Shown here piece after piece: positions 60,021-63,746 of a DNA stretch of 64,000 nt. The notes beneath the pieces are model-generated. The model had not been told where the DNA came from. It was given only the letters and a program-made list of their open reading frames with translations, and did not search any database. Made by a program: the position numbers and the translations under genes. This DNA is from Nitrosopumilus sp. (GTDB lineage Archaea; Thermoproteota; Nitrososphaeria; Nitrososphaerales; Nitrosopumilaceae), in NCBI GenBank assembly GCA_965249555.1, contig OZ252243.1, forward strand, positions 288,001 to 352,000, read 5' to 3'. The number at the start of each line of letters is the position of its first letter. The stretch's first letter is position 1.

Positions 60021-60302
60021 CTATTTTTTTGACAAAGTTGGAATTACATTACGTAGAACAAAGATCCCAGGAATTAAAAACATCAAAACAGCTACAACTT
60101 GTATCCACAAAACCTTATGAATTGCCATATCTAAAGCAATTTCTCTAAACAAACCAAATGTAGCAAGTATCATAATTACTAATGGATATGCAGACCAAAT
60201 AACACCACCAAATAAAATAATCACTAAAATTATTTTAAATATTTTTAAAAATAAAAAGAGAGAGGGATTAGTTTGCATAGTGCCAAGCAATGACATATCC
60301 AT
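60021..60302 (-). CDS. Small membrane protein downstream of secreted protein A (start uncertain)
   Basis: Two to three hydrophobic segments directly after the stop at 60268. Confidence 0.55.
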   Translation of the reverse strand: MDMSLLGTMQTNPSLFLFLKIFKIILVIILFGGVIWSAYPLVIMILATFGLFREIALDMAIHKVLWIQVVAVLMFLIPGIFVLRNVIPTLSKK

Positions 60303-61032
60303 CCCACCACCAAACAGGTGCAGTATATTCCAGAATTTCAGGATTTGGTTCAGGACCTTGGGAATTAAATGAATTGTAAGTTTGGACTATCCCTTGCATT
60401 CTCATTTCACCACGATAACAACCATACGCATTTACTTCTTTGGCATAATCATTTCCATAATTCCCACTGGCATAAATAGGAACTTGATGATATCCATCAC
60501 CTAGTAGATAATCTACAGCACTACCAATTGTATATAATAAATATACTTGAGGTGCAGGTAATGGATTCCAAGGAGCGCCACCACAAACTTCACCCCATGC
60601 AAAGGCTTCAGGTAATATCCAATCAAAACCAATAATATCATTTATTAATTCTTTAGATTTTGTTTTTTTATCTTGAATATCTTTAGTGAATTCTGAGAAC
60701 TTTTCAGTTAACTCATCACTAACGACTGGTTTTTCATCGGGGTTGTTTTGTGCTTGACTACGGAAAGAGTTTTGCATTTCAATGTAATCAGAAGCAATTT
60801 GTATTGTTTCTAGATCTAATGGAATCTCACTAATGTCTTTTGTGAATTGTACTAAACCATTTTCATCTAAGATCACATATGGTGTAATTGCTTTAATTGT
60901 ATCTGATACTTGTGTTGGTGAATATCTTTGAGTTTCTGCATCACCTTGTGCTGCATTCATACCAGAGAATGGTAGAACCATTGCAACAATGAGTGATGCA
61001 AACAGTGTTGTTTTTGCGTTCTTATACGTCAT
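60268..61032 (-). CDS. Secreted precursor-like protein A
   Basis: Signal peptide, internal WILPEAFA motif, and a Trp/Tyr/Gly-rich C-terminal domain with two Cys. Confidence 0.8.
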   Translation of the reverse strand: MTYKNAKTTLFASLIVAMVLPFSGMNAAQGDAETQRYSPTQVSDTIKAITPYVILDENGLVQFTKDISEIPLDLETIQIASDYIEMQNSFRSQAQNNPDEKPVVSDELTEKFSEFTKDIQDKKTKSKELINDIIGFDWILPEAFAWGEVCGGAPWNPLPAPQVYLLYTIGSAVDYLLGDGYHQVPIYASGNYGNDYAKEVNAYGCYRGEMRMQGIVQTYNSFNSQGPEPNPEILEYTAPVWWWDGYVIAWHYAN

Positions 61033-61246
61033 TGTACTATATACAACACCTTGTTATAATACAATTGATAATGACTTGCGGTATGCCTTAAAATAATAAA
61101 CAAGTTTATGGCAATTTACTATCTTACAAAGTATACGTAATGCCTGCAGCCCACAAATTGTACGGTTATACCAATAAAACAAAATCAAAGCACCAAAAAA
61201 GGTTCTATTAGATTTACGGGATCTATCCAAACTGCTGTAAACTTGA

Positions 61247-61720
61247 GGCTCTGATCTATTCTTTGAGACAGATGATGTCTTTATTCACATTGACCTAAAG
61301 ACCGTCCAAACAAGAAATATTGGCGACTACAAGTGAATGATAGTCAAGACAGGCAAAGCAAAAAATGAGGAATATGCGGATGTATTGCCTGTAGAATATC
61401 AAAACGAGGGAAATCCAAAACCATGCCTGACATATTTTGTTACCATTCTTTATGATGAGGGTAATTTGGATATTCTAAACATCAACTTGTTGTGTATGCC
61501 TAACGGTTCTCTTAGTTCTGTTTATGGCTCTAGACCACTACAGGCAGGAAAGAATCCAGGTAAAATCAGATTTAACATAAAGGATGCAGGCACTTTTGAG
61601 TTGTTAGATAAAAAACCAAAAAGAATTAAAGTTGTATATTTCAATGAAAAAATGAATGATGAATGCAAGAAACAACTTTGCTATATCAAATCAGTTTATG
61701 ATAAACAGCCTAAACTTTAA
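61247..61720 (+). pseudogene. BglI-like type II restriction endonuclease remnant
   Basis: GSDLFFETDDVFIHIDLKT (PD-DxK), in-frame TGA at 61334, then LPVEY..KPCLTYFVTILY..CMPNG..AGKN..IRF. Confidence 0.65.
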
Positions 61721-61825
61721 CACCTCCAGACACTTTCCAGTTCTGAATGAATCTTTAGAAGATCAGGTCTCTATAACTTCACAGAGCCGAAATACATTAG
61801 GTATTTCTAACCTCTTTTTTTTATT

Positions 61826-62137
61826 TTGACATTAAGGAAGATTTTATTATATGTTGGATTGCCTGTATGTGGAATTTTATCACATCTTTATTTCTCATTA
61901 TTACTTTCAATATTCAACATTGAATTTGATGACATTAAAATATTAATCATGTTTCAACCAAGTTATCTAATTATAGTAAATACACTTCCATATTTTGCAT
62001 ATGAAAAAGATTTGTTACAATATCAGTGGTTTATGCTTCCATTTTTAATTATAATTTCAAATATAATACAATGGCTTCCAATTGCATATATTATCAATAA
62101 AGTGTGGTTAAAACGAAAATATATTAACAAATCTTAA
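61826..62137 (+). CDS. Small membrane protein, long form
   Basis: 103 aa with about three hydrophobic segments; N-terminus lies within the inverted repeat. Confidence 0.65.
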   Translation: MTLRKILLYVGLPVCGILSHLYFSLLLSIFNIEFDDIKILIMFQPSYLIIVNTLPYFAYEKDLLQYQWFMLPFLIIISNIIQWLPIAYIINKVWLKRKYINKS

Positions 62138-62139
62138 AA

Positions 62140-62325
62140 TCATGGATTACATTTACTACATAATTTAATATTTGGATTATTTCTCCATGAAGGTTGAAAC
62201 ATGATTAATATTTTAATGTCATCAAATTCAATGTTGAATATTGAAAGTAATAATGAGAAATAAAGATGTGATAAAATTCCACATACAGGCAATCCAACAT
62301 ATAATAAAATCTTCCTTAATGTCAA
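62140..62325 (-). CDS. Short form of the same membrane protein, downstream of secreted protein B
   Basis: First 46 aa identical to the long form, then an unrelated 15-aa tail. Confidence 0.5.
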   Translation of the reverse strand: MTLRKILLYVGLPVCGILSHLYFSLLLSIFNIEFDDIKILIMFQPSWRNNPNIKLCSKCNP

Positions 62326-62340
62326 AATAAAAAAAAGAGG

Positions 62341-63222
62341 TTAGAAATACCTAATGTATTTCGTTAACTCTGAATTGTGGTCGTATATATCAAGTGCATG
62401 ATTCCAAGTATTTGCATAAATGCTTACACCACTATACCAAGTTCTTGTTTTATCACCATGAGCCGATATACCGTACCCATTTCCTCGATCCCAAATATCA
62501 TCAAACTGTATTTGACCATTCAAAATTACAAATGTTTCAACATCTGTAATTCTACCATGATGGACTAATCTATACTGATCATAAATAGAATCAAGTATTG
62601 GACTTGGATCATCTTCATCTTGCCATTCTAAGACATATCTAGTTGTACTTTGACTGCTTGAAACTATTTTATCAACACTGATTAGTTGATTTCCACCATT
62701 GACATTATAATACACATGACTTGTCCAACCAGTACCACCAAAAACATCTACAGATGGTTGAACAAATCTAGATATTTGATATTGATTAGTTGTGGCCTGA
62801 GCTTCAGGAATTAGATTCCACATTCCATCAACTTCTACAGTTTCATTTATGACTTGGACATCATCTTTCAAATATGCTTGTTCAATTTCAGCACGTTTTA
62901 TGATTTCACTCATCACATAATCTTTGAATTTAGATATTTGTTGATCATCTAATGTATGACCAACAACACGTTCTATTTTCTCTAATGTTTTATCAAGTGC
63001 CTCATCATATTTTGTCTTTAATTCAACTTTTTTCTCGTCTTTAGATTTGTCTTTTTGATCTTGCTTGACATATTGTTTTACCTCTTTATCTACATCTTTG
63101 AGTAAATCCTTGACAGATTTTTCATTTGATTTGGCATCTGCACTATCCATCATTGAAAATGGTAAAATTAATGCAGTCATCAAAGATGCAAACAGTATTG
63201 TTTTTGCGTTCTTGTACGTCAT
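62341..63222 (-). CDS. Secreted precursor-like protein B
   Basis: Same signal-peptide start as protein A, charged helical region, WNLIPEAQA motif, distinct C-terminal domain. Confidence 0.8.
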   Translation of the reverse strand: MTYKNAKTILFASLMTALILPFSMMDSADAKSNEKSVKDLLKDVDKEVKQYVKQDQKDKSKDEKKVELKTKYDEALDKTLEKIERVVGHTLDDQQISKFKDYVMSEIIKRAEIEQAYLKDDVQVINETVEVDGMWNLIPEAQATTNQYQISRFVQPSVDVFGGTGWTSHVYYNVNGGNQLISVDKIVSSSQSTTRYVLEWQDEDDPSPILDSIYDQYRLVHHGRITDVETFVILNGQIQFDDIWDRGNGYGISAHGDKTRTWYSGVSIYANTWNHALDIYDHNSELTKYIRYF

Positions 63223-63497
63223 TGTATTGTATACAACACCTTGTTATAATACAATTGATAATGACTTGCGGTATGCCTTAAAATAATAAACAAGTTTATG
63301 GCAATTTACTATCTTACAAAGTATACGTAATGCCTGCAGCCCACAAATTGTACGGTTATACCAATAAAACAAAATCAAAGCACCAAAAAAGGTTCTATTA
63401 GATTTATGGAATCTATCCAAACTGCTGCAAACTTGAGTGACCTGTACAATTTTGGTGATCCGGACTCAGAATTCTAAACAGACGTTTCTGACCTTTC

Positions 63498-63746
63498 TTG
63501 ATAGGCTTTTTGTTTTTACCAGTAGATTTTTTGGAATTTCTTAGCCTTCAAGACAAAATTGATGAAAATTCTTTTGATCTTTTAATGGAACTAAAAAGAA
63601 AGCGTAACAAGTTTTATCATAATGGAAAGCCTGTAGCAAAAGATTATGCCGATCGCTGTCTCAAATATGCCATGAGGCTACTTGTTGAGAAAATTCATCC
63701 GTGCATTCATTTATCAGATAATCTGATGCTTACCAAGGTAGCATAA
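63498..63746 (+). pseudogene. HEPN-domain protein remnant (5'-truncated)
   Basis: RKRNKFYHNG (RxxxxH) motif in a helical context; no intact N-terminus. Confidence 0.55.

Follow-up and report, generated by a model that had tools for sequence, protein, structure and literature searches.

What are two neighbouring archaeal genes whose products begin alike, then part ways, and are each accompanied by a small open reading frame (ORF) for a membrane protein? The question arises from a stretch of 64,000 nucleotides (nt), here called the window (G000:C1:288001-352000), which belongs to a single-contig genome of the Nitrosopumilaceae (2.23 Mb, G+C content 34.4%). Genes A and B of this window had been taken, in a preliminary description, for cassettes of a secreted toxin and its membrane immunity protein. 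We found that they are members of a two-gene cassette family that is present at least eight times in this genome, in some cases in a degraded form. It is well supported that the secreted proteins are two-domain proteins with export signals, that each is genetically linked to a small membrane protein particular to its cassette, and that the cassettes are accessory elements in several copies, liable to decay and rearrangement. A secreted toxin paired with a membrane immunity protein is the best reading of this arrangement, a tentative one that we place slightly below an even chance.

Genes A and B share an upstream block and a leader

The features on which the comparison of the two genes rests are the following.

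60268-61032, minus strand: gene A, 254 amino acids (aa), start MTYKNAKTTLFASL; signal peptide at about aa 1-30, helical N-domain at about aa 33-130, disordered linker at aa 128-150, C-domain at aa 146-254
61033-61247, minus strand: upstream block at A, with a core of about 173 nt at 61033-61205
62341-63222, minus strand: gene B, 293 aa, start MTYKNAKTILFASL; signal peptide, charged helical region, LIPEAQA motif, C-domain of about 150 aa
63223-63437, minus strand: upstream block at B, 99% identical to the A copy across 173 nt

Both products carry Sec-type signal peptides, and the ORF translations confirmed the common start MTYKNAKT(T/I)LFASL that had been pointed out before. The public record of gene B (P0019, 279 aa) starts at Met15, which leaves the conserved leader short by its first 14 residues; the longer start, MTYKNAKT, is the one kept among paralogues and orthologues.

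The likeness continues upstream of the genes. A direct repeat, 60965-61247 against 63155-63437, runs for 283 nt at 94% identity without gaps, somewhat longer than the 253 bp originally described and far beyond chance. It is composed of approximately 205-215 near-identical nt upstream of the ATG and of about 68 nt of signal-peptide coding sequence, and the alignment places the beginning of the divergence between A and B immediately past the signal peptide. Within the block, the TATA-like sequence TATTATAA ends about 22 nt 5' of the ATG, and we infer that the block may be a promoter for a leaderless or short-leader mRNA. A structured or cis-regulatory RNA was considered and rejected, as the block had no Rfam match at E<=1 and showed no excess of RNA structure (folding z-scores of -0.26 and 0.05).

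In this genome, 11 places carry the block in whole or in part. Of the 173-nt core there are 8 full copies (93-100% identity) and 2 partial ones, and the final ~40 nt of the block are kept even in the partial copies. A search of 80 further genomes of the genus returned just 2 weak partial matches, the block not being conserved in the remaining 78, which argues for a lineage-specific repeat instead of a genus-wide regulatory element; it looks like a repeat of this lineage that was recently spread or homogenised. The constant promoter and leader claimed at first therefore hold within this genome but not as a conserved regulatory element. Block and leader are also separable, since the copies at genome positions 1930 kb and 2093 kb precede genes with another signal peptide (MTLK...). 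The common homogenised promoter-plus-leader block suggests that the cassettes are probably alike in expression and able to recombine.

Beyond this genome, 30 leader matches in five other genomes yielded 20 leader-bearing ORFs, 15 of which have a small membrane neighbour (with at least 2 membrane segments in 6 of these). None of the 15 leader-bearing ORFs scanned had a Pfam match at E<=0.001 above cut-off. Searches with tblastn also returned a stretch, MIYKKTKTFL*QQSILF..., that has an in-frame stop and recurs at more than 20 places genome-wide (e.g., 296226-296294, 373211-373279 and 547027-547095), and a further pair (LMTALSL / ALMLPYHL) that is likewise repeated, about 10 times. Insertion sequences or some other family of repeats are the probable source.

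Cassettes in this genome

Complete or degraded pairs of a secreted protein and a small transmembrane (TM) ORF lie at genome positions 348 kb (A), 350 kb (B), 357 kb, 659 kb, 1928-1930 kb (two), 2094 kb and 2125 kb. Together with the recurring block, they bear out the idea of paralogous cassettes with a shared promoter and leader.

Cassette A: secreted protein 254 aa; downstream ORF 93 aa
Cassette B: secreted protein 293 aa; small ORF 103 aa at full length, plus a truncated copy of 61 aa
Genome 357372-357599: remnant of an A C-terminus; small ORF 85 aa
Genome 659513-660064: A-type fragment; small ORF 66 aa
Genome 1929387-1930289: A-type paralogue, 300 aa; small ORF 98 aa
Adjoining 1929387-1930289, convergent with it: broken B-type gene with FIPKAHA; small ORF 93 aa
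Genome 2093665: secreted protein 305 aa with a C-terminal tail like that of C; small ORF 91 aa
Genome 2123973 (cassette D): secreted protein 256 aa; no small ORF, transposase-like ORFs downstream instead
Genome 2125853 (cassette C): secreted protein 303 aa; TM ORF of about 105 aa

The eight small ORFs of this genome are each single-copy and share no mutual BLAST similarity at E<=0.01. Truncated leader ORFs were found at genome positions 661864, 672415 and 669855, and the cassettes of the window adjoin accessory genes, some of them transposase-like. The interval from cassette B to the A remnant at 357 kb contains a 310-aa transposase-like ORF (L147 2846-3778, genome ~354.2-355.2 kb) and several small unannotated ORFs, which suggests that the whole 348-358 kb stretch is a variable island. 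Cassette B is also adjoined by an 82-aa ORF (63498-63746, plus strand) with weak HEPN-like matches, all of them under their cut-offs (Pfam HEPN_Swt1, E 0.0026; PADLOC CARF_HEPN and PDC-M05B, E 0.0014).

A small membrane protein accompanies the secreted protein

Behind gene A lies the following ORF.

60021-60302, minus strand: sA, small membrane ORF of 93 aa with 3 predicted TM segments, overlapping the last 35 nt of A; candidate for a partner or immunity protein

Homologues of sA recur behind A orthologues (62, 36, 36, 24 and 23% identity), which indicates that sA is a real gene. To measure the association more broadly we pooled 18 genome and 41 metagenome loci carrying the A domain (59 in total, 48 non-redundant at 95% identity), 44 of which could be assessed because they retained at least 150 nt of downstream sequence. 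A partner was defined as an ORF on the same strand, of at most 200 aa, starting between -120 and +200 nt from the stop, with at least 1 predicted membrane segment. Such a partner was found at 40 of the 44 loci, and one with at least 2 segments at 31. When 1077 long ORFs of this genome were treated by the same procedure, the corresponding counts were 137 (12.7%) and 38 (3.5%); as the procedure takes the most hydrophobic candidate, it raises the figures for the A loci and for the background equally. The exceptions were L027 and L099, with no such ORF; L104, with a 257-aa ORF of two segments; and L115, with none bearing a membrane segment. Secreted B-type loci gave a similar picture, with a small membrane ORF in 9/10. 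Congruently with the adjacent membrane genes originally proposed, both families thus show the linkage, and the type of partner tracked the subtype of the secreted protein in both.

The partners of the A family are diverse. They fall into 19 BLAST clusters; among them, some are polytopic, some cross the membrane once and have a Cys-containing ectodomain, and others resemble lipoproteins. Many of them overlap the stop codon of the secreted gene, at offsets of -10 to -119 nt. Moreover, in 8 of 9 non-redundant loci where A is reduced to a truncated remnant the TM ORF is kept, and this retention resembles that of orphan immunity genes.

These properties bear on the alternative that A and B are non-toxic surface or secreted proteins (adhesins, S-layer-associated proteins or extracellular enzymes), with the small membrane protein devoted to anchoring, docking or assembling them. 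We consider it rather unlikely. Partners of homologous A domains are unrelated in both sequence and topology, and 19 unrelated clusters are hard to reconcile with one docking interface; an anchor without cargo has no obvious use at a broken A gene; and the distribution is patchy, multi-copy and island-like. Other observations, given below with the domains concerned, speak in its favour.

The same partners also call to mind a lysis or release cassette, in which a lysin-like secreted protein would degrade the envelope and have its activation or release controlled by a holin-like membrane partner. Small size, TM segments, diversity and a charged tail are textbook holin features, and the partners are small and extremely diverse proteins with 1-5 TM segments and, in many cases, a charged tail at the end (...PTLSKK, ...LKRKYINKS, ...KKRIDKTRA); gene overlap is likewise as in lysis cassettes. 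However, around the cassettes examined in this genome no phage genes were seen, the secreted proteins have Sec or Tat signals of their own, several paralogous cassettes occur per genome, and Pfam scans detected no muralytic or other lytic domain. Some partners, unlike holins, are lipoprotein-like with Cys-rich soluble domains (L083, L101, L111). Taken together, we regard this explanation as improbable.

The A family spans Archaea and Bacteria and its predicted fold has no match

A word-indexed search identified 14 full-length orthologues of A at 44-61% identity. The family proved much larger in a profile search of 1.84 billion representatives, with 292 clusters at E<=0.001 and 139 at E<=1e-10 (clusters defined at 50% identity). 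Most members are 230-300 aa long and match both halves of the profile; in longer ones, the conserved domain of about 105 aa is always C-terminal. They bear Sec- or Tat-like signals, and the named ones, all labelled hypothetical, come from Nitrosopumilus metagenome-assembled genomes (MAGs), some of high G+C, from an Actinomycetota MAG and from Mesobacillus boroniphilus. Across the phylum the family occurs in 8 of 301 genomes, all of one family (7/43 there), and a scan of the genome contigs gave 4 loci. One high-G+C member (L014, on G031:C17; P0040) is a 299-aa gene; behind it lies an ORF of 187 aa for which three membrane segments are predicted, and the P0040 cluster is recorded in several Nitrosopumilus sp. 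MAGs on contigs of up to 2.2 Mb; this pair and these records indicate that high-G+C relatives carry the cassette too.

Near-invariant positions of the family are C150, C205, R211, the stretch E228-P-N-P-E232, Y236, P239, W243, Y246, W250 and H251. The conserved Cys, 2 in A and 4 in a bacterial-type subset, would fit an extracellular disulfide-bonded domain. An internal lipobox (L-[ST]-A directly before the invariant Cys, in some members) was considered and dropped, because it lies about 150 aa from the N-terminus with no preceding membrane helix.

The AlphaFold2 model of A built from a 150-sequence alignment reached a predicted local distance difference test score (pLDDT) of 88 and a predicted template modelling score of 0.81; with a 15-sequence alignment the C-domain had a pLDDT of 53. 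The model consists of a helical N-domain (aa 38-130), a low-confidence linker (pLDDT 57-62) and a C-domain of four strands and two helices. We found no Pfam, NCBIfam or PDB-sequence match for this C-domain, and the fold had no Foldseek match in the PDB at E<=0.001 (best 0.65). Among 48,161 chains compared with VIA-align the top Z was 4.0, the lowest E in BFVD was 0.17, and the ESM Atlas, where the best scores were 0.77 (A) and 0.78 (B), offered no usable lead.

A motif at the domain boundary

Next, we studied the motif that separates the two domains.

60598-60618, minus strand: ILPEAFA motif of A, aa 139-145, in DWILPEAFAWGEVCGG; AxA-type candidate processing site in the linker
62794-62814, minus strand: LIPEAQA motif of B, aa 137-143, in MWNLIPEAQATTNQ

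Both proteins thus carry [IL][IL]PEA.A at the domain boundary. At the same boundary of 15 A orthologues, [IVL]LP[EQ]AFA is present in 11, VPKAYA in 2 and neither in the other 2, and a variant of the form hydrophobic-[PQ]-x-[AV]-x-A occurs in 9/10 full-length secreted B-type proteins. In the AlphaFold2 model the A motif falls within the low-confidence linker, with pLDDT below 50 at aa 140-145, and it resembles the cleavage region of the leader itself (ILPFS...A.A). A second AxA-type processing site is a plausible candidate role for it. The boundary motif described at first accordingly stands for both genes and most of their closer relatives, in A within a predicted disordered linker, but its conservation reaches only so far, a limit taken up below.

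The same description had the payload being exchanged at this motif, and for this we found no support. The regions before the motif are family-specific: a hidden Markov model of the A N-domain scored at most 3.5 bits on all B-, C- and D-type proteins, on which grounds homology between the N-regions of A and B was rejected. For the C-domains it was rejected as well (hhalign probability of 23.8% across 25 columns). Moreover, when the top 150 of the 292 A-family clusters are considered, most of them match across both the N- and the C-domain. Only promoter and leader are common to A and B, which lends no support to payload exchange at the motif; judged from these profile comparisons, the entire mature protein differs between types, not just the part after it.

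A pro-protein layout with a candidate processing site is also what an extracellular signalling pair could have, with a processed pro-protein ligand sensed by its cognate membrane protein in kin recognition or quorum sensing. In favour of this, the partners are diversified and specific, and a comparable self/non-self reading was proposed by the authors of a study of the Thermococcales VARTIG module of variable secreted and membrane proteins (PMC8416519). Yet the partners, mostly 60-130 aa long, have no recognisable signalling or output domain, no regulator is linked at the loci examined, and the invariant charged residues of the C-domains are more typical of enzymes. We judge signalling to be very improbable.

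The B family

Gene B has few close relatives. Its C-domain occurs in 11 of 201 Nitrosopumilaceae genomes, from 7 of 27 genera, and in the secreted B-type proteins an N-terminal helical region peculiar to them is joined, with an AxA-type motif at the boundary, to a domain of about 150 aa in which D159, N178, D202, E203, D211, R218, D227, E229, H255, N271, N274, H275 and N283 are invariant. Three Nitrosopumilaceae homologues of the C-domain (L061 970-1911, L062 1417-2361 and L063 1348-1878) are without a signal peptide and differ in their N-terminal region, from which it appears that the B domain probably also exists in a cytoplasmic form; a small membrane ORF was found downstream of none of the three.

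B had no Pfam or PDB match. Residues 173-233 aligned with positions 50-112 of the 202-position Lsa23 profile (NF047489) at E 1.5e-9 and 37.5 bits, against a curated cut-off of 270 bits, so that B does not qualify as a member of this adhesin family and is at most a distant relative. The partial match nonetheless counts for the non-toxic alternative with an anchor, to the extent that a score so far under its cut-off can, and so do the sets of invariant polar residues in both C-domains, which are suggestive of enzymes.

An inverted repeat at gene B

The small ORF of cassette B is present twice, in opposite orientations.

61788-61959: arm 1 of the inverted repeat, 172 nt, with 100% complementarity to arm 2; it contains the start of the small ORF and, in copy, the final 23 nt of gene B
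61826-62137, plus strand: sB, full-length small membrane ORF, 103 aa
62140-62325, minus strand: truncated small ORF, 61 aa, 15 nt past the B stop; its first 44-47 aa match the 103-aa ORF, after which it diverges
62192-62363: inverted-repeat arm 2, 172 nt, pairing with arm 1

The 61-aa ORF is a truncated inverted duplicate of the 103-aa ORF that arose through the perfect 172-nt inverted repeat, and the 232-nt segment between the arms (61960-62191) contains the 3' part of the small ORF. The claim that a small hydrophobic ORF comes right after each gene is therefore true of A and only partly of B, behind which stands the truncated copy while the full gene is on the opposite strand. Homologues of full-length sB, 98 aa long, are found directly 3' of B-type genes and co-oriented with them in two other genomes (L057 and L059, offsets of +8 and +15), which indicates that gene B followed by an intact small gene was the ancestral layout. 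In Logan contigs from 3 runs the depth of the arms was about twice that of the middle piece; the contigs break at the arms, and since the perfect repeat exceeds the 31-letter word in length, either orientation gives the same words. Recombination from arm to arm would shift the intact ORF from the plus strand to directly behind gene B.

A 127-aa ORF (61337-61720, plus strand) sits between cassettes A and B and reads toward arm 1 and the full-length small membrane ORF; it had no Pfam, NCBIfam or PADLOC match.

Toxin and immunity as a tentative reading

Four features speak for a secreted toxin and its immunity protein: a single conserved domain has extremely diverse partners, these partners persist where the secreted gene is broken, the cassettes are distributed patchily, and the secreted protein is laid out as a pro-protein. 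Under this reading, the pro-protein (signal peptide, helical N-domain, exposed linker, compact C-domain) would be exported by Sec and its leader removed. The N-domain would then be released at the linker, with the [IL]P.A.A motif acting like a second signal-peptidase-type site, and the freed C-domain would act from the outside on the envelopes of competitors. The small membrane protein, encoded directly downstream and often overlapping, would protect the producer, and the whole would amount to a bacteriocin- or archaeocin-like toxin-immunity pair. Export, cleavage at the motif, toxicity, target and immunity are all deduced from sequence and models.

Several observations weigh against it. No toxin domain was recognised in A or B by Pfam, NCBIfam, PADLOC, PDB sequences, Foldseek, VIA-align or the ESM Atlas, which also counts for the anchor alternative, and our confidence stays under even because no toxin fold is recognisable. 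On the other hand, the C-domains are not a known non-toxic fold either, an outcome that the preliminary description had named as contrary to its proposal. The leader heads many other unannotated secreted proteins, one of them trypsin-like, and is thus no toxin marker; this too fits a non-toxic secreted protein. The PEAxA motif is confined to a subset of the Nitrosopumilaceae, being absent from 2/15 A orthologues and from the wider A family.

The partners raise doubts of their own. Within one genome, homologous A-type C-domains have non-homologous partners, which is unusual for cognate immunity, though known in colicin M-like systems. The correlation of partner and subtype may be mere shared descent, and a linked membrane protein could just as well be an anchor, a receptor or a holin-like partner. 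At B, the assembly as given has the gene followed by the truncated partner, a point against a toxin, because a toxin gene should not tolerate such truncation unless the copy on the opposite strand is expressed; in addition, a T-rich tract between the B stop and the small ORF may terminate transcription before the latter. The initial interpretation thus survives as to cassettes, leaders, linker motif and linked partners, but not as to payload exchange at the motif, and only within this genome as to the constant promoter.

A much wider picture can be drawn, which we hold to be doubtful as a whole. The 292-cluster A family would be an undescribed class of Sec- or Tat-secreted pro-toxins in Archaea and Bacteria, with a new fold, each neutralised by one of many unrelated membrane immunity proteins; along with B-type and other payloads it would form a multi-copy arsenal under one homogenised promoter-leader block; the 172-nt inverted repeat would be a recombination switch moving the intact immunity gene between two expression contexts; and the Nitrosopumilaceae would have their first described competition system.

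Ammonia-oxidising archaea are among the most abundant microbes of ocean and soil. If the cassettes are toxin-immunity pairs, they offer a handle on strain-level competition among these archaea, and two or more families without a known fold would join the secreted toxins, one of them shared with Bacillota and Actinomycetota. Even if the proteins are non-toxic, a secreted family of 292 clusters with a confident but unmatched predicted structure and a near-obligatory hypervariable partner is a well-defined and testable part of genomic dark matter. Our literature search found no protein-based antagonism system for ammonia-oxidising archaea; the main earlier survey (Makarova et al. 2019) was outside that search, and the words 'Nitroso', 'Thaumarchaeo' and 'Thermoproteota' are absent from a recent survey of bacteriocins and archaeocins (bioRxiv 10.64898/2026.07.27.741052).

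Comparison with known systems

Polymorphic toxin systems (Zhang et al. 2012, following the accounts in PMC6393860 and PMC8416519) resemble the cassettes in the small gene directly downstream, the paralogous cassettes, the C-terminal remnants with partners, the patchy distribution and the island context. They differ in having a constant N-terminal trafficking region joined to alternative C-terminal toxin domains, whereas A and B share only the leader of about 30 aa (and the promoter); moreover, A and B have no known toxin domain, no dedicated secretion system and no pre-toxin domain, and their partners are membrane proteins instead of cytoplasmic ones. The VARTIG module of the Thermococcales likewise consists of a variable secreted archaeal protein followed by predicted membrane proteins specific to its subfamily, for which a role in conflict has been proposed (PMC8416519). 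However, VARTIG proteins are large, Ig-rich and from another lineage, whereas A and B are small, have two domains and gave no Ig match in Pfam. As for Lsa23, a Leptospira surface adhesin, the label attached to the partial match of the B C-domain is uninformative on the fold or role of B.

The haloarchaeal precursor ProC8 (HalI + HalC8) is a secreted protein of 283 aa that is cut by an unknown mechanism into a protective N-part and a small, active, Cys-containing C-domain (bioRxiv 10.64898/2026.07.27.741052). Its length and its layout of N-part and C-terminal domain are close to those of A (254 aa) and B (293 aa), in which the AxA-type motif is a candidate cleavage site. There is no sequence relation: Pfam scans at E<=1 found neither Hac8_like_N (PF22862) nor the halocin C8 domain in A or B. 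ProC8 has a Tat leader, in contrast to the Sec-type leaders of A and B, and a C-domain of 76 aa against 105-150 aa; according to the same source, ABC-transporter genes lie downstream of halC8, whereas at A and B we saw none of these and a separate membrane ORF instead.

Colicin M-like bacteriocins are secreted protein toxins that attack the envelope from outside, and a linked gene confers immunity. Its products are either membrane-anchored periplasmic or integral membrane proteins, depending on the lineage (PMC5277000), and the partners of the A family, as candidate immunity proteins, cover the same range. Unlike colicin M, A and B show no Pfam homology to these bacteriocins and no receptor-binding or translocation domains, and the A family spans Archaea and monoderm Bacteria. 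By analogy of layout, colicin M-type bacteriocins and the halocin C8 precursor are the closest counterparts of the A and B cassettes, which belong to neither family.

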